Shown in pieces: positions 97 through 61,869 of a DNA stretch of 64,000 nt. Position numbers and translations under genes: made by a program. The stretch lies in the NCBI GenBank assembly GCA_963750915.1, contig CAVVSF010000007.1, positions 1,110,654-1,174,653 on the forward strand, given 5' to 3'. Under the pieces are notes generated by a model. The model was not told the DNA's origin. It saw only the letters and a program-made list of their open reading frames with translations, and made no database searches. How positions within the stretch are numbered: the first letter of the stretch is position 1; each line of letters starts with the position of its first letter. The DNA is from an uncultured Acidobacteriota bacterium. GTDB lineage: Bacteria > Acidobacteriota > Vicinamibacteria > Vicinamibacterales > 2-12-FULL-66-21.

Positions 97-1371
97 TCAG
101 TGGCCGCCGCTGAAGCTGTGCTTGATGATGATGTAGTCGAGATACGACGCGACGCGCAGCAGCACCTTCCGGATGATGTGCACCATCGCGAAGTGCTCGG
201 TATAGATGGCCGCCGAGCCGCGCGCGCCCGCGGCCATGAACAGCGACTTCTCCTGATCGTTGACGACGAGCTTGGCCGGGAACCGGCCGGGCGGCGCCAC
301 GAAGACCGTGCGCGGGAGGTCACCTGAGGCGTCGAGCTGCCCCTGCCCCTGCGCCCAGATCACGGAATCCACGTGCGCCTTGATGATGCGGCCAGGATAG
401 GTGTCCAGCGTGATCTCGGCATGATTGCCCGGCTCCACCTGGTGCAGTTCGTTCTGGCCGAACATGGCAAAGATCTGAAACTCGTCGTCGACGAAGGTCA
501 TGACCTCGTTGAACGGCATCCCGGCGACGAAGAAGCCGGGGCGCAGCATCACGTTGACCATCGTGCCGTTGCCGGGCGCCAGCACCGTCGTCTGCGTCAG
601 GTCCCAGCGGGCGTTGTCGAGCTGCGCCCTTGTCGTTTCCACCTGCGCCTCGGACACGCGCAGCTGTCCCTGCGCCGTGGCGATCTGCGCCCTGACCTGG
701 GCGACCACGGCAAGGTCGCCCTTGACGCGGCCCGAGAGCTTCTCCTTGACCTCCTGTTCGGCCGCCCGTGCTGCCGCGAGCTTCGCCGACAGCTCGTTGA
801 CGCTGGTCTGCGCCTGCTCGAGATCGAAGCGATTACCGGCGCCGGCGGCGACGAGCTCGGTGTTCTGCTCGACGCGCTTGCGGGCGAGATCCAGCGACGC
901 CGTCAGCGACGTCACCTGACCCGTCGCCTGCTTCTGCTGCTCGCGGAGCTGCGGCTCGCTCGACTGGGCGTCGGCCATGCGGGCCTGGGTCTCGGCCACG
1001 CGCGCCCGCTCGGCAACAACCTTGGCCTCCTCGGCGATCAACTGCGCCTCGAGCGAATGGACCTCGTTCTGGTACGGCGTCGGGTCGATGCGGAACAGCA
1101 CGTCGCCCTTCTTCACGGGTCGATTGTTCTCGACCGGGACCTCAATCACCCGTCCCCGGACCTGCGACACGATCGGAACGACGTATTTGACGACCCTGAC
1201 GTCGGTCGTCGTCGGCGCGAAGATGTTCAGCAGGAGCATCATGATCGCGAGGGCGACCACGGGGAAGATCGCCACCGCCACCTTCCAGGGTGTCGTCCAT
1301 GGCAGCAGCTTCAGCTTGATGAAGATCAGCCAGACGAAGAACGAGTAAATTCCGAGCAGCAGGAGCTCCAT
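97..1371 (-). CDS. HlyD-family membrane-fusion/secretion protein (YiaV/YibH-like)
   Basis: Lower part of ORF 97..1950. Internal ATG at 1369-1371 is preceded by GGAGG (1379-1383) and overlaps a TAA of another frame (TAATG). Has an N-terminal TM segment (LLLGIYSFFVWLIFIKL), a lipoyl-like hairpin (VKKGDVLFRIDP), a long coiled coil and a C-terminal barrel. Confidence 0.85.
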   Translation of the reverse strand: MELLLLGIYSFFVWLIFIKLKLLPWTTPWKVAVAIFPVVALAIMMLLLNIFAPTTTDVRVVKYVVPIVSQVRGRVIEVPVENNRPVKKGDVLFRIDPTPYQNEVHSLEAQLIAEEAKVVAERARVAETQARMADAQSSEPQLREQQKQATGQVTSLTASLDLARKRVEQNTELVAAGAGNRFDLEQAQTSVNELSAKLAAARAAEQEVKEKLSGRVKGDLAVVAQVRAQIATAQGQLRVSEAQVETTRAQLDNARWDLTQTTVLAPGNGTMVNVMLRPGFFVAGMPFNEVMTFVDDEFQIFAMFGQNELHQVEPGNHAEITLDTYPGRIIKAHVDSVIWAQGQGQLDASGDLPRTVFVAPPGRFPAKLVVNDQEKSLFMAAGARGSAAIYTEHFAMVHIIRKVLLRVASYLDYIIIKHSFSGGH

Positions 1372-1899
1372 TACCGAACCTCCTGCCCCTCGAACTTCGC
1401 TTCGAGCGCCTCGAGATCGGCGCGGAGGGTCGTCAGCTCGGACGCCGGCACCCGTCCCTCCAGCCTCGCCACCCGATCCCTGAGGCTGGCCGTCGTCGGG
1501 CGCCTCGACGACGGGGACGACGACGGCCTCACCGTCGGTGTCCGACGCAGGCGCCTTGTCCGTGCCGTAAGCCATCTTGTACATGACCGGTTTGGAGTAG
1601 GCCCACAGCCAGGCCAGCGGCCAGAGCAGTCCGCCGAACACCAGCGAGAGCAGGCATAGCGTGCGGATGGCTTCGAACTGCGGGTGATGACGCTTGTGCG
1701 CGATCTTCTCCGGAAGGATGTGCACCATCCAGAACAGGACGATGAGCACCACCGGCACGATGAACAGGACGAAGATGGCGATGAAGGTGGCGATCTTGTC
1801 TTCGACCTCTTCGGAGAAGAGCGATGCCTGGGCATCCGCCGGCGCCAGCAGGAGCGCGGCACACATGAAGAGCAGGACCGCCGGCAGGGAGGGGGCCAT
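1371..1899 (-). pseudogene. DUF3302 (YiaW-like) small membrane protein; reading frame broken (one extra nt) or fused to the HlyD gene
   Basis: N-terminal part is in the frame of ORF 97..1950 (MAPSLPAVLLF...HILPEKIAHKRHHPQFEAIR...WLWAYSKPV). A protein-like coiled-coil C-terminus (ASLRDRVARLEGRVPASELTTLRADLEALEAKFEGQEVR) lies in the frame of ORF 1371..1913 and ends in TAA at 1371-1373. Length 529 = 3n+1. Junction at about 1485-1530. Confidence 0.55.
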
Positions 1900-2000
1900 T
1901 CTTCGACGTCCAATCACGACCGAATCACGTGGGACTGATGCCATATCCAACGTCCGCGAGAGCTGTGTTGACGACTGAAAGCGGGGACGGGCATCGCCAG

Positions 2001-2016
2001 AGCACTGGCCGTGCCA
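2001..2016 (-). promoter_or_regulatory. candidate sigma-54 (-24/-12) promoter for the DUF3302/HlyD operon
   Basis: Minus strand reads TGGCAC-GGCCA-GTGCT. The -24 hexamer is perfect and GC is at the correct -12 spacing. It lies about 50-100 nt upstream of the DUF3302 start and is divergent from the sigma-54 activator gene. Confidence 0.45.
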
Positions 2017-2258
2017 CCCGCCGGGAGAGCCGCAGGCACTGGAAAGCCTTGAGCCACGTCACCCGCCGGCCGGATCTTGCCCCCGGCGACGCGTGCGAAC
2101 CTCCGAGATAACGGGCTGTCTCCGGTATGCCGGAGTCCGGCGCGCCGAATAGCCACCAGATCGGACGATGATTGCTGCCGCGGCAGGCGACGCCCCGGGC
2201 ACACCGATTGCTCCGCTTTTCTGGCAATCTCAAAAAGGCGAGCGGTAGAGGAGCGGGT

Positions 2259-3317: not shown

Positions 3318-3322
3318 GAGCG

Positions 3323-4139
3323 TTACGGCCGGACGTTTACGGCCGATGAGAGCTGGAACTGCAGGCGTGTTTCGGCGGGGAGCTGCAGATGCTCCTCGCC
3401 CTGACTCGATACCGCGGCGCCCGTGACGCCGCCGATGGCCGCGCCGATGGCCGCGCCCTCGCCGCCGCCCGCAATGCCTCCGACAATGGCCCCGAGGCCG
3501 GCGCCGCCGCCCACCTTGCGCGCCGTGCGCTTGCCTTCGCCCTTCCCCTTGGCCTCGACGTAGCCGGTCGCGACCTCGTAGACGAAACCGCCGAAGGCGA
3601 TGGCGTTCATTTTCAGCGAGATCTTGTCGCTGCCCTTGAACTTGCCCGACTGCTCCACCTTCGCGGCCTGAATCGTCGCCGAGGCGCCGCGCGGAATCAC
3701 CACCGAGCCGCCGATCATCACCGGGTCGTCGATGATGGCCTTGAACGTCTGCCCCGCGTGTGACACGTCGACGTCGATCGCCTGGGTCAGCCGGACGTTG
3801 AGCGCCGTACCCGCCGGAACGGTTACCGGCTTCGGCGCCGCGGGTTTCGGCGCCGCGGGCTTGGCCGCGCTCGGCGCGGGCTTGGCCGCGGCTCGGCGCC
3901 GGCGCCGGCGGCGGCGGTTTCCGCGGCGAGAACTCCACGGCGACGGTGTCTTCCAGCCGGATCTCGGACACGCTGCCGTTGTCGAGGAGCAGCCGGACGG
4001 TCTTGCTGTCACCGCCGATGAACATGCCCTCGACCACCTTGCCGGAACGCAGCCGGATCCGGTCCGCCGAGAGCGAGGCGCCGGCGGCGACCATGATCAT
4101 CGCCGTCGCGATCGGCACGATAACCTGTCGGATTCTCAT
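3323..4139 (-). pseudogene. secreted glycine-zipper protein (hypothetical), frame broken in the Pro/Ala linker
   Basis: Signal peptide and N-domain are in the frame of ORF 1914..4139 (MRIRQVIVPIATAMIMVAAGASLSADRIRLRSGKVVEG...VEFSPRKPPPPAPAP). The remainder is in ORF 3323..4012 (AAKPAPSAAKPAAPKPVTVPAGTALNVRL...GLGAIVGGIAGGGEGAAIGAAIGGVTGAAV). Length 817 = 3n+1. Junction at about 3885-3900. Confidence 0.65.
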
Positions 4140-4173
4140 CTCCTGCTCACTCCGTTTTTGTGCGTCTCGCGGG

Positions 4174-4687
4174 TCACTTGGCGATGGGCAGGGAGGCCGA
4201 GATCTGCAGGTCGATCAGCAGCAACAACTGGTGCTCGACCTGGAGGAAGCGCAGGGCCGTCCGCGGCGTGAGCGCGGTCTTGAACTGTTCGAAGAACTTT
4301 GCCTTGACGGCCTGTCGCCGCGCTTCGAGATCGAGCGCCTTGCTGGCGAGCTTCTCGGCGACGGCATCCGTCAGCGCCGAGTAGTTGCCGGCGTACTCGG
4401 CGATCAGCGCCAGGCGCTCGTCGCCGAGCTTCGCCATCTCGACGTCGTAGTCGCGGTAGATCGGCCAGAACACCTTGTCCTCGGCCTCGGTGAACCCGAC
4501 GACTTCCGTGATGATCGCGACCTTCTGCGCCCGGAGATCGCTGCGCAGGAGCTCGGCGTACGCGCTCAGATTGAGCGTTATTCGTCTCGCCTTCGCTCGG
4601 AGGCGGCGCTTTTGCCTGGGCCCGGGCCTGGGCCGGGAAGAGCGCGGCCGCCACGAGGACGGCCGCGAGGATCGTGCGTTGAGACAC
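4174..4687 (-). pseudogene. periplasmic helical protein (hypothetical), frame broken after the signal peptide
   Basis: GTG at 4685-4687 is preceded by GGAGG. The signal peptide MSQRTILAAVLVAAALFPAQARA is in the frame of ORF 4136..4687. The mature part (YAELLRSDLRAQKVAIITEVVGFTEAEDKVFWPIYRDYDVEMAKLG...) is in the frame of ORF 4174..4473, which is open upstream but has no start codon. Length 514 = 3n+1. Junction at about 4560-4585. Confidence 0.65.
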
Positions 4688-4725
4688 GTGGATGCCTCCG
4701 AGCGAGGTGTGTTCCGAGGGTTTCG

Positions 4726-5283: not shown

Positions 5284-5334
5284 ACCCTGTCCTTTCGGTC
5301 CTGTAGACGACGGCAATTTCGCAAGCTTCGCTGG

Positions 5335-5350
5335 TGCAATTGTCAAGCCG
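5335..5350 (-). promoter_or_regulatory. candidate sigma-54 promoter for the DUF4136 / periplasmic protein / glycine-zipper operon
   Basis: Minus strand reads cGGCTT-GACAA-TTGCA. GG and GC are at canonical spacing and the -12 TTGCA is perfect. It lies about 50 nt upstream of ATG 5283. The same bases contain TTGACA, so a sigma-70 -35 reading cannot be excluded. Confidence 0.4.
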
Positions 5351-5564
5351 CCGCGATCGCATGGAAGAAGGCCGCAGGGACACCGGACTCCAGTCGCCTG
5401 TCCGTCCTGCCGGAGGAACTCCGGTAAACCGGAGCCGCGATCCGGGGCTGCCGGGCGTCAACCCTCGGCCGCTCACCCAACCTCCTGTCGCCGCGGCACT
5501 TGATCCCGCCCCCGACCCCGGCCGAACCGGCATAGTCCATGCTCGACCGGGCGTAAGATGACTT

Positions 5565-10486: not shown

Positions 10487-10489
10487 CCG

Positions 10490-13360: not shown

Positions 13361-13363
13361 CGG

Positions 13364-15158
13364 TCAGCGCTTGCGGAGGGTGCGGGAGACGCGGCCGACC
13401 GGCTCGCCGTCGAGGTTCAGGATCGCGCGGACGACGTAATCACCGGCAGCGAGGTTGGCGAGCGGCACGACGCCGGTGGCGCGACGGGTGGCAGCATCGG
13501 CCGTCGCCGCCACGGTGCCGGGGACGCGGACGAGCGCCGGTCCGTCGTCGGTGCGCGCGATCTCCATCGCGACCGACAACGTGCCGGCCGGCGGCGTGCC
13601 GACGATCTCGAAGTGGCCCGCGGCGGTCGGCTCCTTGCCGAACTGCAGCCGCGGCACGAACCCCTGCGGCATGGTCACGCCGAGAACGAGGCCGCTCATC
13701 GCGAGGCTGCCGGCGGCGACACGTTCGGCGGTGACGGAGGTACTCGGCGGCGCCGCGGCGGCCGGCGGTGTCGATGGCCGTGGCGCGCAGGCGATATTGC
13801 CCCGGCGACGCAAGGCCTGCCGAGGCGATCGGCGACGACTTCAGCTCGCCGTCGGTCGCGGTCCACTGCGCCACCAGCCGTCCCCGCTGATCGATGAGCC
13901 CGAATGCCGCGGCGCCGATCGCCACGCCCGTGTCGAGCGGCTCGAGCATCGCCACGACACGCAGCTTGACGTCGTCCGGCTCAGGCGAGGTGACGGCGAC
14001 AACGCGCAGCGGCAGGTCGCGGTACGAACGGCCGTCTCGCAGCATCGCGTGCGGCGTCAGCGCCGGTTTGCCTTCGGCCCTGGCGATGAACATCGTGGGA
14101 TGCGCGCGCACCTGGATTGGGCCGCCAGCCTCGCGCCGGACGTGGACCGCGACCCGGCGGTAGGTGGCGTTGCGTTCGGTGTCCTTGGGCTCGAAGCCGA
14201 GGAGGTAGTAGCCGGAGCTCTCCGCCGCGATCTTCGCGAAGGCGCTGCGATCGGTTGGCGTCAGCCGCATCAACTGTCCACTCGTGACGCCGGCGAGGCT
14301 TTCGATCCCGGCGAGCTCTTCGTTGGAACTACGGAAACGGCTGGCGGTCGGGTCCACGAACGCGTTCTTGCCGGAGTCGATGATGAAGTCGTCCGGCCGG
14401 ACGACGTAGACGTTGGCGCGGGAGCGGACGGCGGCGCGGCCGACCTGCTCGTAGTTCTCCGAGCGAATCTCGCACGGTCCCGGTGCCCGGTTCATCGCTG
14501 CGTCGCGCCGCGGCAGCAGCATGCCGGACGAGACAAACACCGTCGTCTTCGGCCCTTCGATGTGGGCGACGCCGTCGAGGTAGCCGGCCAGCGCCAGGAG
14601 CGTGTCGCGGGTACGGCAGCTCTTGTCGGAGTCGGTAGACTGCTGCGCCGCCTGGCCGGTGATCGTCGACAGCACCTTCAGCGTCCGCGCGTGATCGCGG
14701 GTTGGTTCGACCAGGACACCGCCGTACGGCATCGTCACCACCGAGACCCAGTCGCGCGGCGACAGGCCGCGCACGAACTCGGCCGCCGCCGTCATCGCCT
14801 GTTGCGCGACGTTGGCGCGGATCGAGTCGGTCTCGATCACGAGCAGGACGGTGCGGCCGAGATCGTCGAGCGTGTTGGTGCCGAATGGCGCGACGGGCGG
14901 CGGCGAGTGAGCCGCGGCGCCGGGCGTCGCGGTATCGAGGCGGACGAACTGGAGCGATCGGACCTCGCGCGGCCTGCCGTCGATCTCGAGAACGACGTCG
15001 GATGCCGAGAGATCGGTGACCGGCTGCCCCGAGGGCGACAATGCGAGGAAGTCGAGCCGAACGAGCTCGATCGCGCTCCTGACGGCGGCGTCCTGCGCCG
15101 CCGACGTCCCGCCGGTGAGCGCGAGCAGGGGAACGACGGCCGCCAGTCGACGCCACAT
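13364..15158 (-). pseudogene. VWA domain protein (acidobacterial VWFA-related type), frame broken near the C-terminal domain
   Basis: The body is in ORF 13440..15158, protein-like up to ...QYRLRATAIDTAGRRGAAEY. The C-terminus is in ORF 13364..13813 (SVTAERVAAGSLAMSGLVLG...GDYVVRAILNLDGEPVGRVSRTLRKR). Length 1795 = 3n+1. Junction at about 13725-13740. The stop is 3 nt from the kinase start. Confidence 0.7.
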
Positions 15159-15212: not shown

Positions 15213-17039
15213 CTACCTGCCTTCGACCGCGGCTTTCTGGGCTGCGGCCCAACTCTCCACCCTCAGGCGATACGCCGCGACGCGGTCGGGGTGGGCAGCC
15301 GCGAGGTCGCGCGTCTCGTCGGGATCGCGGCAGACGTCGTAGAGCGTCGACCGCGCCGGCTCGACTTCCCAGAGGTATTTCCAGCAGCCATCCGCGAGGC
15401 CCAGCCAGCCGCGGGAGTAGTCGGTGTAGAAGAGCGCCATCAGGCGGCGAGGCGCCAGCAGCGACGACCCCTGGTACTCGCCGGGAACGTCCAGGCCGAG
15501 GAGGTCGAGGATCGTTGGAGCCGTGTCGACAGCGCTCACAAGCCGAGAGATCCGCGTCGCGCCGTCGAATAGACCTGGCGCGGCGATGACGTATGGGACG
15601 CGCAGGTTCTCTTCGAACGCGTACAGCGTGTGGGCGATATTCCCCGGATGCTGGTTGAACGCTTCGCCGTGGTCGCCGGCGATCACGAACAGCGTCCGGC
15701 GATCGAGCCCTCGCCGTTCGAGTCCGGCGACGAGTCGGGCCAGCGCCGCGTCGCTCTCGTGCAGGGCGTTGCGATAACGATCGAAATCGCCCTCCCCGTC
15801 GAACGGTCCCGGTATGGTGGCGGCATACGGATGATGGCCTGAGATCGGAAGATAGGTGACGAAGAACGGCTGCGCGCCGCGGGCGTCGATCCACGTCAAC
15901 ATCCGCTCGACCGTCGAGGCGTCGTCGACGCCGAAGCTCGATTGGACGTCACCGCCAATCGCGCCGGCGTCTTCCAGCGTGTCGAAGCCGCGGCCGTCGA
16001 CCGTGGCGTGCATGCCCAGATAGCCGAAGCGGCCGGAGTGAAAGAGCGCGGTCGCGTAGCCGGACGACTGCAGCCGGCCTGCAAGCGACGCGCAGGGTAC
16101 CGAGGCATATATCTCTGGAGACGTGTCGAAGCCCGGATAGCGCGAGCAGAGCGTCGCGAACAGTCCCTTGATGCTCTCGGGATAGACGGCGTACGCGCGA
16201 TCGACGACCAGCGCGTTGGCAGCGAGCCGCGTCAACCCCGGCATCGGATCCGGGCGGGCGCCGTGCAGACCGAGGTAGCGCGCCGCCGTCGACTCGAGCA
16301 TGACGAGCACGACGCTGCGGCCGCGCGCGGCGCCGCGGAGCGTGGTCAGGTCTTCGCCGCTGCCGCGCTCGAACGGGCTTTCGCGCCAGTCGACGCTGGT
16401 AGTGTCGGCGCGCACCGTCCGGCTCGACGGGGAACGCGGCATGCTCGTCGCCGCGAGGGCCCCGACGGCGTTGCGGTGCAGGCCGCGCGTATCGATACGT
16501 CCATCCACGACTGGGCCGACGGCGGCAATCAACGCGAGGACGGCCAGGATCGGTGTGAACCGGCGCTGGTTCCCGGACGCGAATCGAGTCAGCGTCGGTG
16601 GCAGGAGCAGCGCGGCGACGAGCGTCGCGGCCGCGGCGGCGAGATTCGGGACCGTGAGGTAGTAGCCGACCGAGTCGGCGAGCGCGCCGCGGGCGGCACG
16701 CAACATCGCCCGGGTCAGCGGGCTCGAGAGCACCAGCGTCACCGGCACGTTGACGGCAGCGTAGAGCGCGATGATGACGTACGCGCTCCACGCCAGGCGC
16801 GGCCGGCGCAGGGTCGCGTCGGCGGCATAGAACACGAGCGCGACGAGCGCGTCCTGCCAGAAGTACGCGAACGGCCACCAGGCAGACCAGGCGTCCGTCG
16901 CCGCCCCGAGGCCGACGAGCGTCGTCGCCTTGGCGACGGCAAGCACGCCGAACAGGCTGACGGCCCTCAGCGCGTGACGAGGTTCAGCCGTTTGAGCAGC
17001 AGCCACGAGATCGGGACTCCGGCCGGGTGCCGGTTCCAT
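15213..17039 (-). CDS. LTA-synthase/sulfatase-family membrane transferase (MdoB/LtaS-like)
   Basis: ORF 15213..17039. About 5 N-terminal TM segments, then a sulfatase fold (VVLVMLESTAARYLG, FFVTYLPISGHHPY, VIAGDHGEAF). The annotated start overlaps the upstream gene by 73 nt, so the true start may be internal. Confidence 0.8.
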   Translation of the reverse strand: MEPAPGRSPDLVAAAQTAEPRHALRAVSLFGVLAVAKATTLVGLGAATDAWSAWWPFAYFWQDALVALVFYAADATLRRPRLAWSAYVIIALYAAVNVPVTLVLSSPLTRAMLRAARGALADSVGYYLTVPNLAAAAATLVAALLLPPTLTRFASGNQRRFTPILAVLALIAAVGPVVDGRIDTRGLHRNAVGALAATSMPRSPSSRTVRADTTSVDWRESPFERGSGEDLTTLRGAARGRSVVLVMLESTAARYLGLHGARPDPMPGLTRLAANALVVDRAYAVYPESIKGLFATLCSRYPGFDTSPEIYASVPCASLAGRLQSSGYATALFHSGRFGYLGMHATVDGRGFDTLEDAGAIGGDVQSSFGVDDASTVERMLTWIDARGAQPFFVTYLPISGHHPYAATIPGPFDGEGDFDRYRNALHESDAALARLVAGLERRGLDRRTLFVIAGDHGEAFNQHPGNIAHTLYAFEENLRVPYVIAAPGLFDGATRISRLVSAVDTAPTILDLLGLDVPGEYQGSSLLAPRRLMALFYTDYSRGWLGLADGCWKYLWEVEPARSTLYDVCRDPDETRDLAAAHPDRVAAYRLRVESWAAAQKAAVEGR

Positions 17040-18082
17040 ATCCAGTCGTGAATCAGGGTGAAGCGGGCCGGCGGCGCCAGGTACAGGGCCCGGCGATCGC
17101 CATCGTAGGCCAGCGGGATCACGAGCAGTTCGGCCGGCGCCTCGGTTGCGGGATCGAAGGTCCGTTCGGCGAATCGTACGGCCCCGTCATCCGTGGCACT
17201 GCGGCGCTGGAGAAATGCCTGAGCGGCGGCGATGTGCTCCGCGCGCTGTTCGACGATGGTGAGCGACGCCTCTGGCAGCAGCTGGCGCAGGATGAGCAGC
17301 GTCCGCGGGAACAGGCCGCCGCCAACGATCGTGACCTGCGCGACGCGGGGCAGCTCCGCGAGCACACGCCTGAGCGCACGTTCGTGCCGCGCAAGGACGA
17401 AGCGTTGCAGCCACGACGACCTCAGTACCAGACGCTCGAGCCCCTCGAGCGAAAATGCGTCGAGCCAGCGCAGGACCGGCGGCCAGCGGCTGCGACGCTC
17501 GTTTGCCGCGCCGAGCCGCGGCAGCCGGGTCCAGTGCACACCCGGTCGCGAGTGATGTTCGACGTGATAGCCGTCGTTGAAGAAGCACAGGTTGTACGCC
17601 CGGCCGTAGTGACTGGTCGTGCCGCGGGCGTGCTCGTAATGTCCCTGGAGGAAGCACAGCCCGAGGCCGGCGGCATAGCCGGGCAGGTAGATCCCGAAGA
17701 ACACATCGCTGGCGGCAAGCGCCAGCAAAGACCCAGAGCCCTGCCACCACACCGGTCTCCATCGCGAGGAGGCCGCTCCTGTCGCGCCGGCAGGGGCGCC
17801 CGGCGTGGTGATCGAGGTGACGGCGCCGCCAGAGCGTCTGGGGGATGCCGGTCAGCGCGGAGAGGAACAGGGAGTAGGCCGTGTTCAGCCGCGCCGACCG
17901 GAAGAACGGAGTGTGGATGAAGTTGTGCGCGACCGTGTTGGACGTCCACCACAGCCCGATGGCGACCAGCGGAATCGACGGCGCCAAAAGCAGGACGGCG
18001 CCGTACGCGAACGACAACCCGACCAGGCCCCATCCCACCGGGAAAAGCGCAGGAACCCAGTCCGGGCAACGGTGGCGCTCAC
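16967..18082 (-). pseudogene. fatty-acid-desaturase-domain protein fused to a Rossmann-like C-terminal domain; two apparent compensating frame changes
   Basis: AGGAGG, then 6 nt, then GTG at 18080-18082, in the same frame as the C-terminal ORF 16967..17752. His boxes 1 and 2 (HNFIH, HLDHH) lie in the frame of ORF 17187..18038. His box 3 (HVEHH) and VTIVGGGLFPRT lie in the frame of ORF 16967..17752. Total 1116 = 3n. Confidence 0.6.
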
Positions 18083-24602: not shown

Positions 24603-27600
24603 ATGACGAGCCTAAGCAAGTGGGGTTCATCCTGGGTGCGCGCCAGCCTGGTGCTGGCGCTGGTCACGGTAACCGTGACTGCCGCGGCGGCCCAGACGAC
24701 CCTCGGCCGGGTGGCCGGCTCGGTGCTGGATTCATCCGGCGCCGCGCTCCCCGGCGCAACGGTCACGCTGACGAACGAGAAAACCAACCAGGTCCAGACG
24801 ACGGTGACGGGCGAGAACGGCGGCTACGTCTTCCCGCAGGTGTCGCCCGGCAGCTACAAAGTCGAATTCGCGCTCCAGGGCTTCAAGACCGCCGCCTTCA
24901 ACGAGGTGATCGTGGTCGTCGGCCAGGAACGATCGCTGACCGCCAACCTCGAACTCGGCGCGATCACCGAGCAGGTCGAAGTCACGGCCGGCGCGTCGCT
25001 GGTTTCGTCGACGAGCCCCGAAGTCAGCGCCACGGTTCTCCAGCGTCAGATCCTCGATATCCCGCTCGCGAACCGCGACGTCACCAACCTGATCAAAGCG
25101 CAGCCTGGTGTGCAGCCGTTCATCAACCGGACGAACACCAGCATCAACGGCGGCCGTCCGACCTGGACGACGGTCACGCTCGACGGCATCAACATCCAGG
25201 ACAACTTCATCCGCACCAACTCGCTCGACTTCCTGCCGAACCGTCCGACGTCGGACACGATCGCCGAGTTCTCGATCACGAGCTCGGTCGCCGGCGCGGA
25301 AGCGGCGGGCGGCGCCAGCTCGGTGCGCATGATCACGCCGTCGGGCTCCAATCGCTTCAGCGGCAGCGTCTTCGAGTTCAATCGCGACTCGAAGTACGCG
25401 GCGAACTCGTTCTTCAACAACGCGGCAAGGCCCTCGGTCCCCAAGTCGGACCTCAGCCGCCACCAGTTCGGCGGCCGCTTCGGCGGTCCGGTCCAGAAGG
25501 ACAAGTTGTTCTTCTTCGGCTACTACGAAGGCTTCCGGCAGACGACGCAGGCGTCGCAGAACCTCACCATCCCGGCCAACGCCGACTTCGTCAACGGCGT
25601 CTTCCGCTATGCCGGCAGCGATGGCGTCGTTCGTTCGGTGAACGTCATGGAACTGTCGGGACAGGCGGTCGACCCGACGCTGCGGCAGAATTTCCTGGGC
25701 CTGATTCCGGCGGCTTCGAACGTCAACAACTTCGAGACCGGCGACTCGACCACGAGCCGCAACCTGAACACTGCCGGCTACCGGTTCAACCAGACCGATC
25801 AGAACGATCGCAATCAGTGGGGCTTCAAACTCGACTACGCGATGTCGGACGCACATCGCTTCGAAGGCGGCTACCACTACTTCAAGGAGATCGACGATCG
25901 CACCGATCTCGATTCCATCAGCCCGGATCGTCCCCTGGTCTACACCAGCTCTGATCCAAAGCGCTTCTCGCTGGCGTGGCGGTATCTCGCCACCTCGAAC
26001 TTCCAGAACGAGCTGCGCGGCGGCGCCAACCTCGCGCCGGTGCAGTTCGAGAGCGACTGGGCATATAGCGGTAACCAGTACACGACGGCGCTCGGCATCA
26101 TCAACCCGATCGGCGGCAATGGCACGGCCATCGGCTTCCAGCCGCAGGGCCGCTACACCAACACCTACCAGATCGGCAACAACGCGTCGCTCCTGAAGGG
26201 CAGCCACCAAATCACGATGGGCGGCAGCTGGCAGCGGAATCACGTCAATCCGTACAACTTCGCCGGCGCGTTCCCCCAGGTCAACTTCGGCTACAGCGCC
26301 GCCGCGCCCGGCAGCCTGACGCTGACGACGTCGCAGTTCCCCGGCGGCATCGCAGCCGCGGATCTGACGCGCGCCAACGCGATGGCATCGTGGCTTGCCG
26401 GGACGATCACGTCGGTTCAGCGCACGTTCCAGGTCGAGGACACGAGCTCCGGCTTCGTCGGCGGCATCGCGTCGAACGAGAACTACACGCTCGACAACAT
26501 CGCCGCCTACGTCCAGGACAACTGGCGCTGGAAGCCGAACTTCACGGTGCGGGCGGGGTTGAAGTGGGAGTACTACAGCCCGCTGAAAGAGGACGACAAC
26601 CTCGGTTTCCTGCCGATCCTGAACGGCCGCTCGCTCGAGCAGACGATGCTCGACCCGGCGACGGAGCTCACCTTCGTCGAAGGCGACATGTACAACAAGG
26701 ATCTCAACAACTTCGGCCCGACGCTCGGCTTCGCCTGGGACGTCACGAAGGATGGTAAGACGGCAGTGCGCGGCGGCTACTCGCTGACGTTCGTCAACGA
26801 GGAGACGGTGACTGTCGGGCGCTCCGCGTCGCGTGGCAACACCGGCCTCAGCAGCGTCAGCATGCTCAGCAACCAGTTCGCTCGCGTCAACTCCGGCGTA
26901 CCCGAGGTCCCGACGCCAGCGTTCCTCTCAACCCGAACGCTTGCGAATCAGATGGCGCTCAGCTCCACCGGCGTGTTGTGGGGCCTGGACCCAGAGCTCC
27001 AGGCGCCGCACGTGCACCAGCTCAGCTTCGGCATCCAGCGCGAGCTGGGGGCGTCGACCGCGGTCGAAGCCCGCTACGTCGGCACGTTCGGCCGCGGCAT
27101 CTGGCGCGGCACCGACTACAACCAGGTGCAGATCAGCCCGGAGTTCCTCGCCGACTTCAATCGCGCCCGCTCGAACGGTTATCTCGCGCAGCAGGCAGGG
27201 CTGGCGTTCAACGGCGTCTTCAATCCCGCCGTTCCCGGCAGCCAGCCGCTGACGCTGCTGCCAAGCTTCGGGACCGCGCTCACCAACGCGACGATCGTCA
27301 CCAACCTGCAGACCAACCAGGTGGCGGCGCTGGCCGACTTCTACATGGTGCAACGCCTCACGACGCCGGCCACCTTCATGCAGAACCCCGGCATCTACGC
27401 CTCCCAGGCGCTGTCGAACGGCGGCTTCAGCGACTACAACTCAGCGCAGTTCGAGCTGCGGCGCCAGTTCCGGAACGGATTCTTCGGCCAGTTGAACTAC
27501 ACGTGGTCCGACACCAGCACCGACTCGTCGGGCACGGGCCAGAACCGCTTCGAGGCGTTCATGGACAACAACCGGCCCGGCCTCAACACCGGCCGATCCG

Positions 27601-28263
27601 TGTTCCACGTCACGCACGCCATCCAGGCCAACTCGATCTACGAGCTGCCCTTCGGCACCGGCAAGAGGTGGTTGAACTCGAACGGGCTCGTCGACGCCAT
27701 CGTCGGCGACTGGCAGGTCAGCGGCATCTTCGCGTGGTCGAGCGGTTCGCCGATCAGCATCACCTCGACGCGCGGCACGTTCAACCGCGCTGGCCGCTCG
27801 AACTGCGCGACCGATCCGATCTCGTGCAACACCGCGTTCACGAACCTGTCGCCTGAGGAGGTCAAGGGGCTGCTCGGCATCCACAAGGTCGAGGACCGGA
27901 TCTACTGGATCGATCCGAAGGTCATCGGCGCGGACGGCCGCGCCGTCGGCGCCGACAACCTGAACAACGCCGCTGGCTTCGACGGCCAGGTCTTCTTCAA
28001 CCCGGTCGCGGGCGAAGTCGGCAACCTGCCGATCCTGGAGTTCGACGGTCCGGCGCAGTTCCGCATCGACATGGCGCTGTCGAAGCGCTTCGGGTTCGGC
28101 GACACGCACCGCTTCGAGCTCAAGGGCGAGGCGTTCAACCTGACGAACACGCCGAGCTTCTTCCGCGGCGACATGGACATCAACAGCGAGACAGTTCGGC
28201 CGCCTCACCAGCGTCAACATCGGCTCGCGCGTCATCCAGTTGTCGATTCGGTACGAGTTCTAA
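24603..28263 (+). pseudogene. TonB-dependent receptor with N-terminal carboxypeptidase-regulatory-like domain; frame broken ~70 nt before the true stop
   Basis: ORF 24603..28382 is protein-like up to ...FFRGDMDINSE (28190). The +1 frame from 28192 reads QFGRLTSVNIGSRVIQLSIRYEF and ends in TAA at 28261-28263. This is the canonical terminal beta-strand ending in Phe, and it is followed immediately by a terminator hairpin. Length 3661 = 3n+1. Confidence 0.8.
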
Positions 28264-33928: not shown

Positions 33929-35942
33929 TCACTCCGGCCACCCCGTTTCCAGCTCGACGAAGAACGTCCGGATGCCTCGCCGCACCTGGAGCACCACGGT
34001 GCGGGGCTTGGCCTCGGCGATCGCCGTCATCTTCTTCTGCACGGATTCGACGTCGGCAACCGGCGTCCCGTCGATCGCCAGCAGCAGGTCCCCGTCCGCC
34101 AGGTGACCGAGCGCCGCCCACCCGCCCTCGCGCACCGCGTCGACGAGGACGCCGGGCTGGTCCGCTGGCAGCCGCGCCGCCGCACGGTCAGCTGCGGCGA
34201 CGTCACGCACCCGGAACTCGAAGTTCGGGTCCTCGGTACTTCTTCATCTCGCGCGGCAGGCGCGGCGAGGTGTCGAGCGTCACCGGCACGATCAATTCCT
34301 TGCCGTCGCGCAGCAGCGTCAGGCGGACGACGGTGCCGATCTTGTACTGGCGAATCAGCGTCGCGAAGAGCTCGGTGTCGCCCGGCTGCGAGGCTTCGAG
34401 GGCATTGCCGTCGAGCGCGACGACGATGTCGCCGACGCGCAGGCCAGCCGCCTGCGCCGACCCGCCGAAGACGCGGGTGATGCGCACGCCGGTGCGATCG
34501 ACAGCGCCGAGACGTTCGGCCAGTTCGCGCGTCAGCACCTGCACCGACACCGGCACCCAGGCCTTGCGGGCCTCGAGCCCGGGATCCTCGAGCCCGGCGC
34601 GGCCGACGTCGATGACCGTCAACAGGCGCTCGCCGGCGCGCTCGAAGCCGACCAGCGCCGCCACCCGCTCTTCCTTGCCGCTGGTGAGCACCTCGATCGT
34701 CTTTTCCAGCGCCTCGAACGACCCGATCGCCTTCCCGTCGACGCTCACGATCACGTCATCGTCGCGCAGCGAGGGCTTGGCTTCGTCGGACGGACCGCCG
34801 GGACGAATGCCGCGGACGCGGACGCCATCGCGCGAAGGCCGCTTCAATTCGGTTGCCGCCCACGACGTCAGGTTGGAGGCGGTGATGCCGAGCAGCGGGA
34901 TCTCGCGGACCCGGGCGTCGACGCTCTCGCGCTCGGCCGGCGTCACCGAGATCGTCTTCTCGGCGCCGCGGCGCAGGACGACGGCCTCGACCGGCTTCCC
35001 GATCGGCAGGCGCATGACCATCTGGTTGAAGATCGGCACTTCCTCGGCGAAGCGGACGGTCACGTCGCGGCCGGCGAGCTTGAGGATGATGTCGCCCGAG
35101 AGGAACCCGGCGGCGGCCGCCGGCGACCCGTCGATGGTGCCGCCGACCAGCGCCCCGCGCGTCGCCTTCGACGACGACAGGAGCGGCTGGACCTCCAGCC
35201 CGAGCCAGGCGCGGCGGACGCGGCCGTCGCGCATCAGGGCCTCGGCGACTTCCCGCGCCAGGTCGGCGGGAATCGCCCCGGCGAGGCCGAGGCTGATCTC
35301 GTTGACGCCGACGATCTCCCCCTTCATGTTGACGAGCGGACCGCCGGAGTTGCCGCCGAAGATCGCGGCGTCGTGGCCGATCCAGCGGACGATCGAGCCG
35401 ACATCCTCGCCGTCGAGCGTCATCCGGTTGAACGGCCAGAACATGCCCGGCATGATCATCTCGGTGTTGCTGACGATCCCCATCGTCACCGACTGCGACA
35501 GCGCCAGCGGGCTGCCGAGGGCGAGAACGCGATCGCCGACCTGCAGCGAGCCGACGTCGCCGAAGCTGGCGACCGGGAACTTCCGCGGCGCCGCCGGCTT
35601 CAGCTTCAGCACCGCGATGTCGGACAGCGGATCGGTGCCGACGAGCTCCGCCGGTATCTCCTCGCGGCTGGCGAGGGTGCAGACGATGGCGCGGGTGCGG
35701 CCGGCGACATGGTGGTTGGTGACGACGTGGCCGTCGGCCGAGATGATGGTGCCGCTGCCCGACGACTCGCGCTTCAGTTCGCGGCCGTCGACGTACTCAA
35801 TCGAGACCACGTGGACGCGAACCAGGCTGGGCGCGACGCGTGCCAGCGCCGCCTCGACCGCGGCCGGCGAATCGGGCACGGACTGGGCGGACGCGGACGC
35901 GGCGACCCCGCAGAGGACGACCGTCGCGAGCAATCGGCGCAT
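33929..35942 (-). pseudogene. HtrA/DegP-family serine protease with four PDZ domains; frame broken before PDZ4
   Basis: ORF 34203..35942 has TNHHV, DIAVLKL and GNSGGPLV plus three PDZ domains, and ends ...PREMKKY. The +1 frame (ORF 33929..34210 and upstream) reads EDPNFEFRVRDVAAADRAAARLPADQPGVLVDAV...LLLAIDGTPV..., a fourth PDZ. Length 2014 = 3n+1. Junction at about 34230-34240. Confidence 0.75.
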
Positions 35943-43481: not shown

Positions 43482-44412
43482 TCACGCCTGCGCGCGCATC
43501 GCCTTCAGCGCCTGGCGAACGTCGGCGTGTGCGAGCACGACTGCCGGTTGGCGCTGCAGCGACTCGAAGTAGCGCTTGGCGAAGCCTTCGCCGTCCTCCG
43601 ATGCGGTCAGCAGCGCGCCGACCTGCTCAGCGATGGTCTTCGACCTCGGCCTCGCCAGGCGGCTTCTCCCCCTCGACGGTCTCATCGATCCGGACGACGA
43701 GCTCGGAAAGGGCGTGCAACCAGGCAAACCACGGGTCCCCGATCACCAGCTGGAGCAGGTTCGCCGCTGACCCGACGCGACCGCGATCCAGTTCATAGGT
43801 CGCCTTGGCGTCGTCGATCAGGACCTTGTGCAGGTTGAGGAGGCGGCCGCGAAGGGTCAGAAGGTGATTGCGCGCGGCGTCGTTCTCCGCCGACGCCGGC
43901 GGCTGGATCGCCGCGGCCCGCAGACGCCGCAGGTCGAGACGCTCGGTGACCATGCGCAGCGATCCGTCGCTGGCGCGCGGCCATTCGTCCCGCGGCCGGT
44001 CCCAGTAGAGCTCGACGCCGTTCTGGTCAGGGTCGCGCAGATAGAGCGCCTCGCTGACGCCGTGATCGCTCGCGCCGTCGAGCGCGATGCCGGCGCGATC
44101 GAGCCGCAGCAGGGCCTCGCCGAGCGAGGTGCGGTCCGGGTAGCGAATCGCGAGGTGATAGAGCCCGGTGGTGCCCGGCGGCGGCGGCGAGCCGCCCTGG
44201 CTTTCCCAGGTGTTCAACCCGATGTGGTGATGGTAGCCGCCGGCGCTGAGAAACGCCGCTTGATCACCCATCCGTTGCGTGACGTCGAAGCCGAGGACGC
44301 CGTGGTAGAACGCGAGGGCGCGATCGAGGTCCGCGACTTTGAGATGAACGTGCCCGATGTCGACCCGACGATCGAGCCGCTTGCCTGCTCCGTCGCCCAT
44401 GCCGTCAATCAT
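43482..44412 (-). pseudogene. VOC/glyoxalase-fold (CatE-like) protein with a C-terminal helical extension; frame broken near the end
   Basis: ORF 43627..44412 has IGHVHLKVADLDRALAFY... and ends ...GEAEVEDHR. The +1 frame (ORF 43482..43727) continues TIAEQVGALLTASEDGEGFAKRYFESLQRQPAVVLAHADVRQALKAMRAQA. Length 931 = 3n+1. Junction at about 43631-43640. Confidence 0.6.
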
Positions 44413-57774: not shown

Positions 57775-59736
57775 ATGCCGGAGCACGGAACACTCCTCCC
57801 CGAACTGGTTTTGACCTACGCGATCGCGCTGGGCCTGATCCTCGTCCTGGCGAGGCTGCGAATCCCGCCGATCGTCTCGTTCATCATCGCCGGCGCGATT
57901 GCCGGCCCGACCGGTATCGGCATCGTCGAAACGCAGGAGGACGTCAACGTCCTCGCCGATCTCGGCATCGTGCTGCTGCTCTTTACCGTCGGCCTCGAGT
58001 TCTCGCTCGGCGAGATTCGCCGCATCTGGAAGGCCGTGCTGTTCGGCGGGACGCTGCAGATCGCCGGCACCGCGGCGGTGCTGATGCCGGTGCTGGTCCT
58101 GGCGATGGGCGAATCGTGGCGCGTCGGGGTGTTCATCGGCCTGTTCGTCGCGCTGTCGAGCACCGCCATCGTGCTGCGCGAACTGGCGGCCCGCAACCAG
58201 CTCGATGCGCCGCACGGCCGGTTGATGGTCGGCCTGCTGTTGTATCAGGACCTGGCGATCGTCGGGCTGCTTCTGCTCGTACCGATACTCTCGGGCAAGA
58301 CCGCATTGAGCGCCGTCCCGATGGTGGTGCTGAAGGCGGCGCTGGCGATTGGCGCCGTTGCCGTCGTCAGCCGGCTCGTGCTGCCGGTGTTGTTCCGGCT
58401 GGTGGCGCAGAGCGGCCGCCGCGAAGCGTTTCCCCTGGCGGTGCTGGTCGCCAGCATCGGCACGGCCTGGGTCAGCTCGCTGCTCGGTATCTCGATGGCG
58501 CTCGGCGCATTTCTCGGCGGGCTGGTGCTCGCCGAGGGGGAGTACAGCCACCAGGCGCATGCCGAGATCCGGCCGCTGCGCGACATCCTCGCCGGCCTGT
58601 TCTTCATCTCACTCGGGATGCTCGCCGACTTCGGCGCGATCATGGCGCAGCTGCCGATGATTCTCGCGGTCACGCTGGTGCTGATCATGGTCAAGGCTGC
58701 CGTCGCCGGCGGCGCGCTGTGGGTCGTCTCGACGCCGCTGCGGGTCGCCGTCACCGCCGGCATCGGCCTGGCCCAGGTCGGTGAGTTCTCGTTCATTCTC
58801 GGCCGCGCCGGCATCGAGGTCGGCCTCATATCGTCAGGAGAATGGCAGGTCCTGCTCGCCGCCAGCATCGCGACGATGCTGGTGACGCCGGTGCTCGTCG
58901 CGATGGCGCCGCGGGCCGGCACCTGGCTGGCGGAACGGACAGGGCAGATCAGCGACGCCACCGAGGACTCCGATCGCGCGCACATGTCCGGGCACGTCGT
59001 CATTCTCGGCTTTGGCGTTGGCGGCCGGCTGCTCGGCGCCGCCCTGCGTCAGCTCAACGTGCCTTACGTGATCCTCGACATGAATGGCGCGACGGTCCGG
59101 CAAATGCGTGCCGACGGCGAGTCGATCTTCTTCGGCGACGCGACAAATGAAGACGCGCTGCGCAGCGCCGGCGTCGCCGACGCCCGCGCCGTCGTCGCGG
59201 TGATGAGCGATCCGTATGCCTCCGCGCGGGCGTTGACGGCGATTCGCGCCATCAATCCGTCCGTGCCGGTGATCGTCCGGACGCGGTACCGGTCGGAGGC
59301 CGATTCGCTGCGGCGGATGGGTGCGACGGTGGCGGTGGCCGAGGAACTCGAGGCATCGCTCGAAGTCGTGGCGCAGGCGATGGCACGGCTCGACGTGCCG
59401 GGCAACGTCATCGAGGTCCTGCTCGAAAGCTACCGTCGCGAATCGACCGGAATGCGTACGGTGCGGGCGCCATCGCAGCCGCTCGAGTCGGTGACGCAGA
59501 CGCCGGTCGCGTCGCACCAGCTCGCTGCCGGCAACTGGGCGGTGGGCAGGAGCCTGGCGGAAGTGAACCTCCGCGCGGAAACGGGGGCGCTAGTGATCGC
59601 GGTGCAGCAGGGTGGGCGGCACATCACCTCGCCGTCGCCCGAGCTCGTCCTTGGGGAGAGCAGCGTGCTCTATCTCGTCGGCGACGACAGCGACGTCATG
59701 CTGGCCCGCCGCCGCCTCGGCGCCGGCCCAGGCTGA
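57775..59736 (+). CDS. CPA2 cation:proton antiporter (Kef-type) with TrkA-N and TrkA-C (RCK) domains
   Basis: ORF 57691..59736. Start taken at MPEHGTLLPEL (ATG 57775). About 12 TM segments; GHVVILGFGVGGR Rossmann motif; C-terminal RCK_C. Confidence 0.88.
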   Translation: MPEHGTLLPELVLTYAIALGLILVLARLRIPPIVSFIIAGAIAGPTGIGIVETQEDVNVLADLGIVLLLFTVGLEFSLGEIRRIWKAVLFGGTLQIAGTAAVLMPVLVLAMGESWRVGVFIGLFVALSSTAIVLRELAARNQLDAPHGRLMVGLLLYQDLAIVGLLLLVPILSGKTALSAVPMVVLKAALAIGAVAVVSRLVLPVLFRLVAQSGRREAFPLAVLVASIGTAWVSSLLGISMALGAFLGGLVLAEGEYSHQAHAEIRPLRDILAGLFFISLGMLADFGAIMAQLPMILAVTLVLIMVKAAVAGGALWVVSTPLRVAVTAGIGLAQVGEFSFILGRAGIEVGLISSGEWQVLLAASIATMLVTPVLVAMAPRAGTWLAERTGQISDATEDSDRAHMSGHVVILGFGVGGRLLGAALRQLNVPYVILDMNGATVRQMRADGESIFFGDATNEDALRSAGVADARAVVAVMSDPYASARALTAIRAINPSVPVIVRTRYRSEADSLRRMGATVAVAEELEASLEVVAQAMARLDVPGNVIEVLLESYRRESTGMRTVRAPSQPLESVTQTPVASHQLAAGNWAVGRSLAEVNLRAETGALVIAVQQGGRHITSPSPELVLGESSVLYLVGDDSDVMLARRRLGAGPG

Positions 59737-59783
59737 GCTCCCCAACTTCTCAAAGATGGCATCGGGATGCGTCGCCCGGCCGC

Positions 59784-60575
59784 ATGCCAACCGTGGATTC
59801 TCAGTTCAGCTCTCAGATCGACATGCTCGTGCGCGTGTACCTCATCCCTGTCGCCTGGCGGATCGCCGGCGCGGTTTGCATCTGGCTCGTCGGCAGCTGG
59901 GCCATTAAACTCTTCCGCTCCGCGCTGCGCCGCTTCATGCGCCTGCGGGCCCTCGACGTGACGCTCGCGGCCTACCTGGAGGCTGGCGCGGGTGCCGTGC
60001 TGCAGCTGCTCGTCCTCATCGCCGTCATGGGAGTGCTCGGCGTCGAGACGACATCGTTCGCCGCGCTGCTCGCCGCCGCCGGCATCGCCATCGGCGCCGC
60101 CTGGTCGGGGCTGCTCTCGAACTTCGCCGCCGGCCTCTTCCTCCTCACGTTCCGGCCGTTCAAGGTCGGCGACACGATCGCCGCCGCCGGCGTGACCGGC
60201 GTCGTGCGCGAGATCGGCCTGTTCGTGACCGCAATCGATACAGCCGATCACGTTCTTACGTACGTCGGGAACAATCGCCTGTTCTCGGAGAACGTCCAGA
60301 ACTTCACCGCCAATCCGTTCAGGCGGGTCGACCTCACGGCGCAGCTGCCCGCGACGGTGAATCCGGAAACCGCCGGTGCGCAGCTGCTCGAACTGGTCCG
60401 CGGGGTCCCGCACGTGCTGATGAACCCGGCGCCGCGCGTCGAGATCCTGACGTTCACCGCCACCGGGCCTGTCCTCGCCGTGCGGCCGTTCTGCCCGAGC
60501 GAGAACTACTGGCAGGTGTACTTCGACACCAACCGCACCATCGGCAAGTTCCTGACGAACGAGATCGCGACCTGA
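59784..60575 (+). CDS. small-conductance mechanosensitive channel (MscS family)
   Basis: ORF 59784..60575. Three TM segments, then the MscS beta-domain motif FRPFKVGDTIAAAGVTGVVREIGLFVT. Confidence 0.85.
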   Translation: MPTVDSQFSSQIDMLVRVYLIPVAWRIAGAVCIWLVGSWAIKLFRSALRRFMRLRALDVTLAAYLEAGAGAVLQLLVLIAVMGVLGVETTSFAALLAAAGIAIGAAWSGLLSNFAAGLFLLTFRPFKVGDTIAAAGVTGVVREIGLFVTAIDTADHVLTYVGNNRLFSENVQNFTANPFRRVDLTAQLPATVNPETAGAQLLELVRGVPHVLMNPAPRVEILTFTATGPVLAVRPFCPSENYWQVYFDTNRTIGKFLTNEIAT

Positions 60576-60620
60576 CGGCCGGGCGTCGGACGCGGTCGGC
60601 GGAGGGCGAGGAGCGATCGG

Positions 60621-61397
60621 CTACGCCATCACGTCCAGCAGCAGCGCCGCCCACGGAACTTCCGAGTAGAACAGGATCACGAGGAAGGTCGCGACGTACA
60701 GACGCCGCAGCCACACGTCGTCGTCTGACGTCTGGGTCAGGCCCATCACGAGCAGCACCCAGCCGAAGCCGGCGACCGGCGCGAACGCATAGGTGACGAG
60801 GCAGAAAACGAGCAGCAGCGCGTGGCGTATCCACGCCGGCGCGCTGGCCAGCATCGCGGCGGCGACCGCCGCCTCGAGCAGCAGGATGCCCCAGGTCGAG
60901 ACCCGGGCCAGCGCGCGCAGGCGCGGCGTCTCGACGATCGGCGGCGGCGTCTGCCAGGCGGCCCCCTCTGGCAGCGGCGACAGCGCGCGGCGATTGGCGA
61001 CCAGCTCCTCCTGCGAGAGCCCGCCGATGAGCATCGCCGCCTCGCCGAAGCGCGGATCGGTCAGGAGCGTGACACGAAAGAACCGGCCGTCGAGGAAATC
61101 GGGGGCCAGCACCGCCTTCCACAGGACGGCGCAGGCGAAGGCGAGACCGATCAGCCAGCGGCTGTTGTGCGCCAGCGCCGCTGGCGGTGCCGCGCCGCGC
61201 AGCGACAGCGCGATCGCCAGCGCCCAGTAGGCCAGCAGGTAGATGTGATTGTCGGCGAGCGGCCAGTCGTCGGCGATGCGGAACGCGATCAGCAGCGCGA
61301 CCGCTCCCCACAACCGCGCCGAGGCCAGCGCGCGGGGATAGATCAGCGCCAGCGCCGCCGCGGCAATCAGCGCCGGCCGCACGAACCAGGGTCCCAT
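60621..61397 (-). CDS. polytopic membrane protein (HTTM-like?); start unresolved
   Basis: ORF 60621..61631. The first ATG (61395-61397) has no RBS and would cut off a hydrophobic segment (VDTALRLTAIALLLRP) that is in frame upstream. The frame is +1 relative to the upstream gene, which stops at 61447. Contains a WPLADNHIYLLAYWALAI motif. Confidence 0.55.
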   Translation of the reverse strand: MGPWFVRPALIAAAALALIYPRALASARLWGAVALLIAFRIADDWPLADNHIYLLAYWALAIALSLRGAAPPAALAHNSRWLIGLAFACAVLWKAVLAPDFLDGRFFRVTLLTDPRFGEAAMLIGGLSQEELVANRRALSPLPEGAAWQTPPPIVETPRLRALARVSTWGILLLEAAVAAAMLASAPAWIRHALLLVFCLVTYAFAPVAGFGWVLLVMGLTQTSDDDVWLRRLYVATFLVILFYSEVPWAALLLDVMA

Positions 61398-61446
61398 CGG
61401 CCGCAGCAGCAGCGCGATCGCGGTCAGCCGCAGAGCAGTGTCGACG

Positions 61447-61869
61447 CTACTGAACGACGTGGACGTAGGCACGCAGGACCCGCTCGTTGGCGTGCAGGGT
61501 GGCGCGGTCGAACTCGGTCCGCCAGACGGTGAGGGTGACGCGGCTGACGGGCCGCTGCCGCCGCCGCTCCCGCGCGACGATACCCTCGGCGAGGCGATGG
61601 AGCAGCCAGTCGGCGGGAAGGCTGGCGGCACGCGCGGCCAGCAGTTCGAGCGAGGGCGGCATCTCGAGCTGCTCGGATCGCTCCGGCGCCTCGACGACCG
61701 CGCTGACCCGCCGGTGCGCGCCGTGGTCGAGGGTCGAGAACATGCCGAACCCGCCCCCCTTCCACGCCGTCAGCCCGCCGGCACGGGCGAGGCCGACCTG
61801 CGCAACCGCCACGGCAATGAGCAGCAGCGCGGCCAGCGGCGGTCGGCGCACGGTCCGCCCGATCGTCAT
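61447..61869 (-). CDS. membrane-anchored hypothetical protein
   Basis: Lower part of ORF 61447..62322. ATG at 61867-61869 overlaps the DUF4136 stop (ATGA). TM segment PPLAALLLIAVAVAQVGLA, then WKGGGFGMFS. Confidence 0.6.
   Translation of the reverse strand: MTIGRTVRRPPLAALLLIAVAVAQVGLARAGGLTAWKGGGFGMFSTLDHGAHRRVSAVVEAPERSEQLEMPPSLELLAARAASLPADWLLHRLAEGIVARERRRQRPVSRVTLTVWRTEFDRATLHANERVLRAYVHVVQ

Follow-up and report, generated by a model that had tools for sequence, protein, structure and literature searches.

Frame breaks in 64 kb of a Vicinamibacterales contig most probably stem from consensus errors left in a long-read metagenome assembly

The DNA analyzed here, referred to as the window, comprises 64,000 nucleotides of contig CAVVSF010000007.1 (positions 1,110,654 to 1,174,653) from assembly GCA_963750915.1 of an uncultured Acidobacteriota bacterium of the order Vicinamibacterales. 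Its GC content varies between 65 and 70% and amounts to 68% overall, a composition that leaves long spurious open reading frames (ORFs) open in most frames. A first-pass annotation, made from the letters of the window alone, had claimed ten reading-frame breaks in about 55 genes, nine of them of the same class with a composite length of 3n+1. Nine of the ten breaks, and eight of the nine 3n+1 cases, hold up against orthologues that read across the junctions in a single frame; the remaining junction, at 60621-61869, belongs to two overlapping genes. The ORF translations of the window, the broken ones included, are found as public proteins on one NCBI/ENA contig (P0177, P0208, P0215, P0216 and P0220). 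In a species-level genome collection, the nearest relatives of the window are Vicinamibacterales/Acidobacteriota metagenome-assembled genomes (MAGs), many of them from the Microflora Danica (MFD) long-read set.

Reading frames were followed with a codon model trained on 22 clear genes and a Viterbi path over six frames plus a non-coding state. The two-frame composite proteins were compared with two sets of related DNA, consisting of 80 loci from genomes, centered on the gene at 5979-8417, and 80 loci from metagenomes, centered on the protease gene at 33929-35942, and frameshift-aware protein-to-DNA alignment was used for placing the breaks. As DNA of the same species we used three contigs from the Joint Genome Institute (JGI), L161, L162 and L163, which we assumed to be short-read assemblies, together with contig_7858 of the ENA entry ERZ25039547, a long-read assembly. 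L161 (full name Ga0190275_10015948) is 97.97% identical to the window over positions 9576-15274 (5.7 kb), L162 and L163 span 58979-63700, and the 52 kb stretch of contig_7858 that was used (L165-L167) aligns to 3438-54428 at 97.4-99% identity. The codon path switched frame on the same strand, without a stop and a new start, at 1371/1484, 3892, 4577, 13735, 17725, 18042, 28190, 34236, 43640 and 61448. Inserted bases are given below on the coding strand, and seven of them could be fixed exactly by comparison with contig_7858.

Three broken genes lie close together on the minus strand near the left end of the window. The gene of a DUF3302-family membrane protein (1371..1899) carries one extra base within 1485-1536, best placed at 1496 or 1523; after correction it encodes 175 amino acids, and 20 related loci show a one-frame reading to residue 175. 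As deposited, its frame enters the downstream HlyD gene and gives rise to an artificial 600-amino-acid fusion, which is the public protein P0177. The corrected gene ends with TAA, overlapping the ATG of HlyD as TAATG behind AGGAGG, and a canonical stop/start junction is thereby regained. A glycine-zipper lipoprotein-like gene (3323..4139, 271 amino acids corrected) has an extra A at 3893 in a Pro/Ala linker (ccg[A]gcc), with the glycine-zipper domains recognized by Pfam lying 3' of the break. It is encoded in a single frame in 25 loci, and contig_7858 lacks the base. The gene of a secreted protein of unknown function (4174..4687, 170 amino acids corrected) is likewise uninterrupted in 26 loci; frameshift-aware alignment puts its break at 4576-4579, and contig_7858, without the base, assigns it to an extra G at 4583 (gac[G]aat).

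The VWFA-related protein gene (13364..15158, minus strand, 597 amino acids corrected) contains an extra C at 13739 (GAGTAC[C]TCC) that is absent from both L161 and contig_7858. Intact 597-amino-acid proteins exist in public data (P0001, P0218), and the intact version on the JGI contig is 98% identical in DNA. Two errors affect the minus-strand gene of a fatty-acid-desaturase-like membrane protein (16967..18082, 371 amino acids corrected), and within 16967-18038 five homologues (P0019, P0020, P0021, P0022 and P0025) match in two frames. An extra T at 17727, turning TT into TTT, is missing from contig_7858. Further upstream in the gene one base has been lost at ~18027 (GGGGC^CTGG), a site across which the N-terminus is unbroken in L164 and P0035, and the true start is the GTG at 18082, preceded by AGGAGG. 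The annotation had expected this single break of opposite sign at 18040-18075; it exists, at a different position.

On the plus strand, the gene of a TonB-dependent-receptor-like outer-membrane protein (24603..28263, 1219 amino acids corrected) is disturbed close to its 3' end by an extra A at 28191 (GAG[A]CAG). The deposited ORF of 1259 amino acids with a false C-terminus corresponds to P0220. Two close orthologues, L082 (78% identical) and L083, stay in frame to the terminal ...SIRYEF, and the Pfam profile OMP_b-brl_4 is matched over 838/838 positions after correction as compared with 821/838 before. Intact same-species proteins are available (P0221, 1219 amino acids; P0222, 1218 amino acids), and contig_7858 lacks the A. 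The gene of an HtrA/DegQ-like serine protease with four PDZ domains (33929..35942, minus strand, 670 amino acids corrected) shows an extra C at 34235 (AAGTAC[C]GAG). It is read in one frame in 70 JGI metagenome loci, all ten orthologues tested (10/10) place the break at 34235, and contig_7858 encodes 670 amino acids without the extra C. Finally, a glyoxalase/dioxygenase-family gene (43482..44412, minus strand, 309 amino acids corrected) has an extra G at 43641 (gtc[G]aag) that contig_7858 does not contain; eight loci carry the gene in one frame, and intact same-species proteins of 309 amino acids are known (P0209, P0210 and P0211).

For the genes at 1371-1899, 3323-4139, 4174-4687, 24603-28263, 33929-35942 and 43482-44412, alignment of the two-frame translations to orthologues, a check proposed in the first-pass annotation, called one extra nucleotide in the window, the orthologues being continuous. 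Contig_7858 has none of the seven insertions within its range and does contain the base lost at ~18027; in it, six of the broken genes encode intact proteins of 170, 271, 597, 1219, 670 and 309 amino acids. The sole coding indel between L161 and the window is the extra C at 13739, and L162 and L163 differ from the window by zero coding indels over 58979-63700. None of the breaks is common to any relative. The seven mapped insertions fall inside the intervals in which the annotation had located the junctions or at most 3 nt away; the opposite-sign break lies just outside its interval. For the exact base, scoring every 1-nt deletion against orthologues of 70-80% identity found the right codon and, at several sites, the wrong base (4580 for 4583, 43643 for 43641), and same-species DNA was used instead. 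An unbiased scan, in which all stop-to-stop ORFs of all fetched loci were compared with the window (45.6 kb covered), returned only the known breaks with backing from several loci. The remaining signals were gene boundaries or, at 62480, a single-nucleotide difference within a 5' untranslated region. An apparent event near 38100 resolved into an ordinary gene boundary and antisense ORF matches. A search with a chimeric query built from the segments around the junctions gave no additional short-read proteins of the same species.

Comparison in the opposite direction showed that contig_7858 has breaks of its own. At least ten private 1-nt insertions were found in it, at positions equivalent to 6952, 10679, 17347, 17987, 32804, 37548, 39352, 41428, 44958 and 52735 of the window. 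All of them sit in genes that are intact in the window, and the codon model run on contig_7858 switches frame at those places. All natural gene boundaries are common to the two assemblies, and none of the frame breaks is. Among the coding indels that separate them, one is in-frame (3 nt at 32586) and 18 are frame-disrupting.

Substitutions relative to contig_7858 were counted by codon position. Downstream of the breaks, in the corrected frame, 3, 3 and 21 fall on positions 1, 2 and 3 (78% third), compared with 117, 83 and 468 in all coding sequence, and codon usage in the Viterbi path is intact in the shifted frame. The third-position excess downstream of the breaks therefore indicates that the shifted parts still evolve as coding sequence.

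For a base rate of such errors, coding segments of the window served as queries, and abutting matches in different frames were counted. In 30 loci of Nanopore-only MFD MAGs, with 173 kb of aligned coding sequence, 26 breaks were counted, or ~1.5 per 10 kb; 20 of them are due to an extra base and 6 to a missing one. The 80 loci on JGI metagenome contigs yielded 0 breaks in 355 kb, and 16 loci of other MAGs yielded 1 break in 87 kb. Hence 26 of the 27 breaks in relatives belong to Nanopore-only MFD MAG loci; an even spread of breaks across the MFD and JGI sequence would place all 26 in the MFD third with a probability of ~3e-13. Like those of the window, the MFD breaks occur in varied contexts that are not homopolymers. 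The window itself has 9 breaks in ~57 kb of coding sequence, and with 8 insertions to 1 deletion the one-sidedness remarked on in the annotation is borne out (two-sided binomial p ~0.04). The 90% clusters that include the broken ORFs also contain differently fragmented copies from other long contigs in ENA, whereas their members from JGI are complete. The MFD MAGs were assembled from Nanopore R10.4.1 reads with Flye and one round of Medaka, and no short-read polishing was applied (PMC12313526).

Two further junctions are natural gene boundaries. At 60621-61869 on the minus strand, gene A runs from 61869 to a TAG at 61447 (140 amino acids) and gene B from a GTG at 61472 to 60621 (283 amino acids), resulting in an overlap of 26 nt. 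L162 and L163 have the same layout of 140 and 283 amino acids with both genes called separately, and in many records from JGI, ENA and Logan the two proteins recur with no difference in length. A homology search with gene B gave 1179 matches, mostly stand-alone proteins of 261-330 amino acids. Orthologues that encode the two halves as separate genes, which the annotation had named as a sign that a break is not real, were found at this junction only. The relative L004, 65% identical, is split in the same way, and of the codon changes where gene B begins, 8 are synonymous and none is non-synonymous. Recoding by +1 at 61447, suggested by L004 sharing the split together with the 0-frame TAG, was ruled out by the GTG at 61472 and by the separately called JGI genes. 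The pair is conserved and also occurs at 13202-14474 of L004 and at 1143-2391 of L162. Gene A encodes a secreted or membrane protein, and gene B a polytopic membrane protein without a Pfam match and with more than 1000 soil-metagenome homologues. Strong purifying selection acts on the beginning of gene B (DTALRLTAIALLLRPMG), but lineages differ in where its start codon lies.

The other boundary separates the desaturase-like gene from a minus-strand ORF directly downstream of it (15213..16970), which encodes a transmembrane part and a Sulfatase domain recognized by Pfam. Distant homologues of ~950 amino acids (P0019, P0022 and P0025) are one protein composed of the desaturase-like part, the transmembrane part and the sulfatase, and match the window in three pieces. 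These fused homologues had prompted an eleventh candidate break near 16970. In the window the split occurs at ACGCGC-TGA-GGG with a CTGA overlap; stop codon and flanks are identical in L164, where 3048-5930 corresponds to 15213-18082 of the window, and contig_7858 has the identical frame change with a stop at this boundary. The candidate was rejected on account of this conserved stop, and judged by these alignments the boundary at 16970 is a natural split in the lineage and not an error. In the CTGA, a CTG that shares two bases with the TGA stop is a possible start; the closest canonical start codon for the sulfatase ORF is the ATG at 17039, and initiation there would create an overlap of 73 nt with the gene upstream.

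From these comparisons of sequences we conclude, with a probability of roughly 0.93, that the nine breaks are single-base consensus errors which remained in a long-read-only metagenome assembly of a soil bacterium, rather than pseudogenes or recoding sites. We favor this explanation because the sites are private and the two same-species assemblies have disjoint sets of breaks, and because every independent same-species sequence that covers the sites contradicts them. The default reading of the annotation, residual single-base insertion errors of long-read sequencing, was supported by all tests run. The organism would accordingly carry intact genes, the deposited contig having one base too many or too few per site, and such single-base errors would make gene callers output truncated, extended or artificially fused ORFs. 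The assembly route was most probably Nanopore sequencing followed by Flye and Medaka, where we infer both the platform of the window contig and its membership in the MFD set. The bias toward insertions probably stems from polishing or consensus calling at modest coverage with mixed strains. A literature search for an insertion bias of R10.4.1 and Medaka in high-GC genomes found nothing specific.

Real and very recent strain-specific frameshifts would turn ~15% of the genes here into fresh pseudogenes. The comparators are other strains of 97-99% identity, so that private mutations are possible in principle, and an intact downstream coding signal would be expected after a very recent event as well. 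Against this stands the second same-species assembly with its at least ten private breaks, all single-base insertions, as well as the restriction of such breaks to long-read MAG loci in 26 of 27 cases, with none in 355 kb of JGI contigs. Substitutions that create premature stops, larger deletions that disrupt a frame and insertion sequence elements are all absent. Selection would also give the opposite of the observed ratio of one in-frame to 18 frame-disrupting coding indels, and the 78% share of third-position changes downstream argues against relaxed selection. We therefore consider fresh pseudogenes very unlikely. The chance is slimmer still that the breaks are not real at all, in the sense that frames stay open by chance and the halves are separate genes. 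At 68% GC long spurious ORFs do exist in most frames, and separate genes are the correct reading for 60621-61869 and for the boundary at 16970; at the nine other sites, orthologues are continuous across the junction, and same-species DNA differs by exactly one base per mapped site.

Programmed +1 ribosomal frameshifting or transcriptional slippage, with a genuine extra base that the cell bypasses, would account for the identical +1 correction required by all eight insertion-type breaks, and a 0-frame stop is indeed near two of the sites (TGA four codons after 43641 and TGA ~ten codons after 34235). Such sites should be conserved, yet all orthologues, 8 to 70 for each gene, are in frame, and so are the contigs of the same species. 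The seven mapped contexts (ccg[A]gcc, gac[G]aat, tac[C]tcc, ctt[T]gct, gag[A]cag, tac[C]gag and gtc[G]aag) have no motif in common, in agreement with the annotation, which had failed to find a shared slippery heptamer, and the longest run at any of the sites is TTT, which speaks against slippage. The only conserved 0-frame stop at a junction, at 61447, belongs to the ordinary overlapping gene pair. Because the sites are unconserved and share no motif, recoding can be set aside as extremely improbable.

Several points weigh against the breaks being consensus errors. The errors are deduced indirectly, by comparing sequences. The comparators differ by 1-3% in DNA and represent other strains, which makes a strain-specific mutation possible at any single site, and the break at 1485-1536 lies outside all same-species sequence and is covered by orthologues only. 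Moreover, three of the seven mapped inserted bases duplicate a neighbor (13739, 17727 and 34235) and none is in a long homopolymer, a pattern that departs from the textbook error profile of Nanopore sequencing. We regard it as rather unlikely, though not negligibly so, that the insertion bias has a specific and correctable cause instead of being random noise, for instance modified cytosines or a bias of the basecaller or polisher in DNA of high GC content, and, as a separate matter, that one or two of the nine breaks are genuine strain-specific mutations. About half of the ~18 private inserted bases of the window and contig_7858 create a CpG (e.g., tca[C]gca, cgt[C]gcc, gac[G]aat and gtc[G]aag), where a rough estimate from base composition predicts about a quarter, which gives a weak hint of a basecalling bias linked to modification or to the model. 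A CpG-linked insertion bias, if true, would be a technical and not a biological finding.

Some smaller differences between the assemblies leave the frames unaffected or could be assigned to neither side. Compared with both JGI contigs the window has an extra A at 62480 (AATA[A]CGG), and against same-species contigs it shows T5 instead of T4 in the spacer of a ribosome-binding site at 44494, and one extra and one missing G near 59770 (59766-59778). These non-coding differences may be further consensus errors without a frame break. Clusters of 1-nt differences from contig_7858 that are assignable to neither assembly comprise three extra bases at 9264-9295 in a small plus-strand gene (9149-9496), two extra bases at 45507-45510 within a perfect 18-nt tandem repeat (45493-45533), and many gaps at 8193-8380 in the low-complexity C-terminus of an 813-amino-acid protein. 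The window also contains intergenic tandem arrays of 7-8-nt units at 20831-20859, 28397-28433, 29529-29671, 30797-30827 and 40833-40870. Their units are GGCTCAG (x4), ACCGGACC (x4.6), GGGCTCA (x14), CCTGAGC (x4), TCGGGGT (x4.4) and AGCTGAC (x5.4). Small indels between same-species assemblies lie at or beside two of the arrays (20800-20940 and 29645-29669).

The breaks reveal no new biology, and the practical consequence is that about one gene in six of this stretch is mis-annotated in public databases. Examples are the artificial 600-amino-acid DUF3302-HlyD fusion P0177, the 1259-amino-acid receptor P0220 and the protease truncated to 579 amino acids in P0215. Public proteins from related long-read assemblies are chimeric or out of frame in the same manner (P0035, P0036, P0158, P0159, P0183, P0187, P0191, P0205 and P0207, and also L164); they mix correct with out-of-frame translation or fuse neighbors, the wrong frames staying open at high GC. 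Such chimeric proteins contaminate homology searches and give the impression of domain fusions that do not exist, as that of DUF3302 with HlyD. Whoever mines MAGs of this kind for pseudogenes, fusions or recoding should expect, in this clade, ~1.5 false positives for every 10 kb of coding sequence; they are cheaply detected by scanning the frames for codon usage and comparing the result with DNA of the same species.

Genome decay with accumulation of pseudogenes is known, for example, from Mycobacterium leprae and recent host-restricted pathogens. Decaying genomes resemble the window in having many interrupted genes. In contrast to them, the lesions of the window are only single-base indels and nearly all of one sign, purifying selection persists downstream, and the breaks are private, with a different set in the second assembly. 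In programmed +1 frameshifting of the prfB type or in Euplotes, one nucleotide is skipped for the full protein to be made, as would be needed here; the window lacks the conservation and the shift-prone motif of those sites, a 0-frame stop is near two sites, neither of them conserved, and the extra base is absent from other same-species assemblies. The closest likeness is to the Nanopore MAGs of the MFD set. The paper describing them treats errors mainly in low-GC, homopolymer-rich genomes (PMC12313526), whereas the window has 68% GC and its errors lie outside long homopolymers. In other respects the two agree: both have very long contigs with broken ORFs deposited in ENA and NCBI, insertions predominate in both (20/26 in the MFD MAGs, 8/9 in the window), and breaks occur at the same density of ~1.5 per 10 kb of coding sequence.

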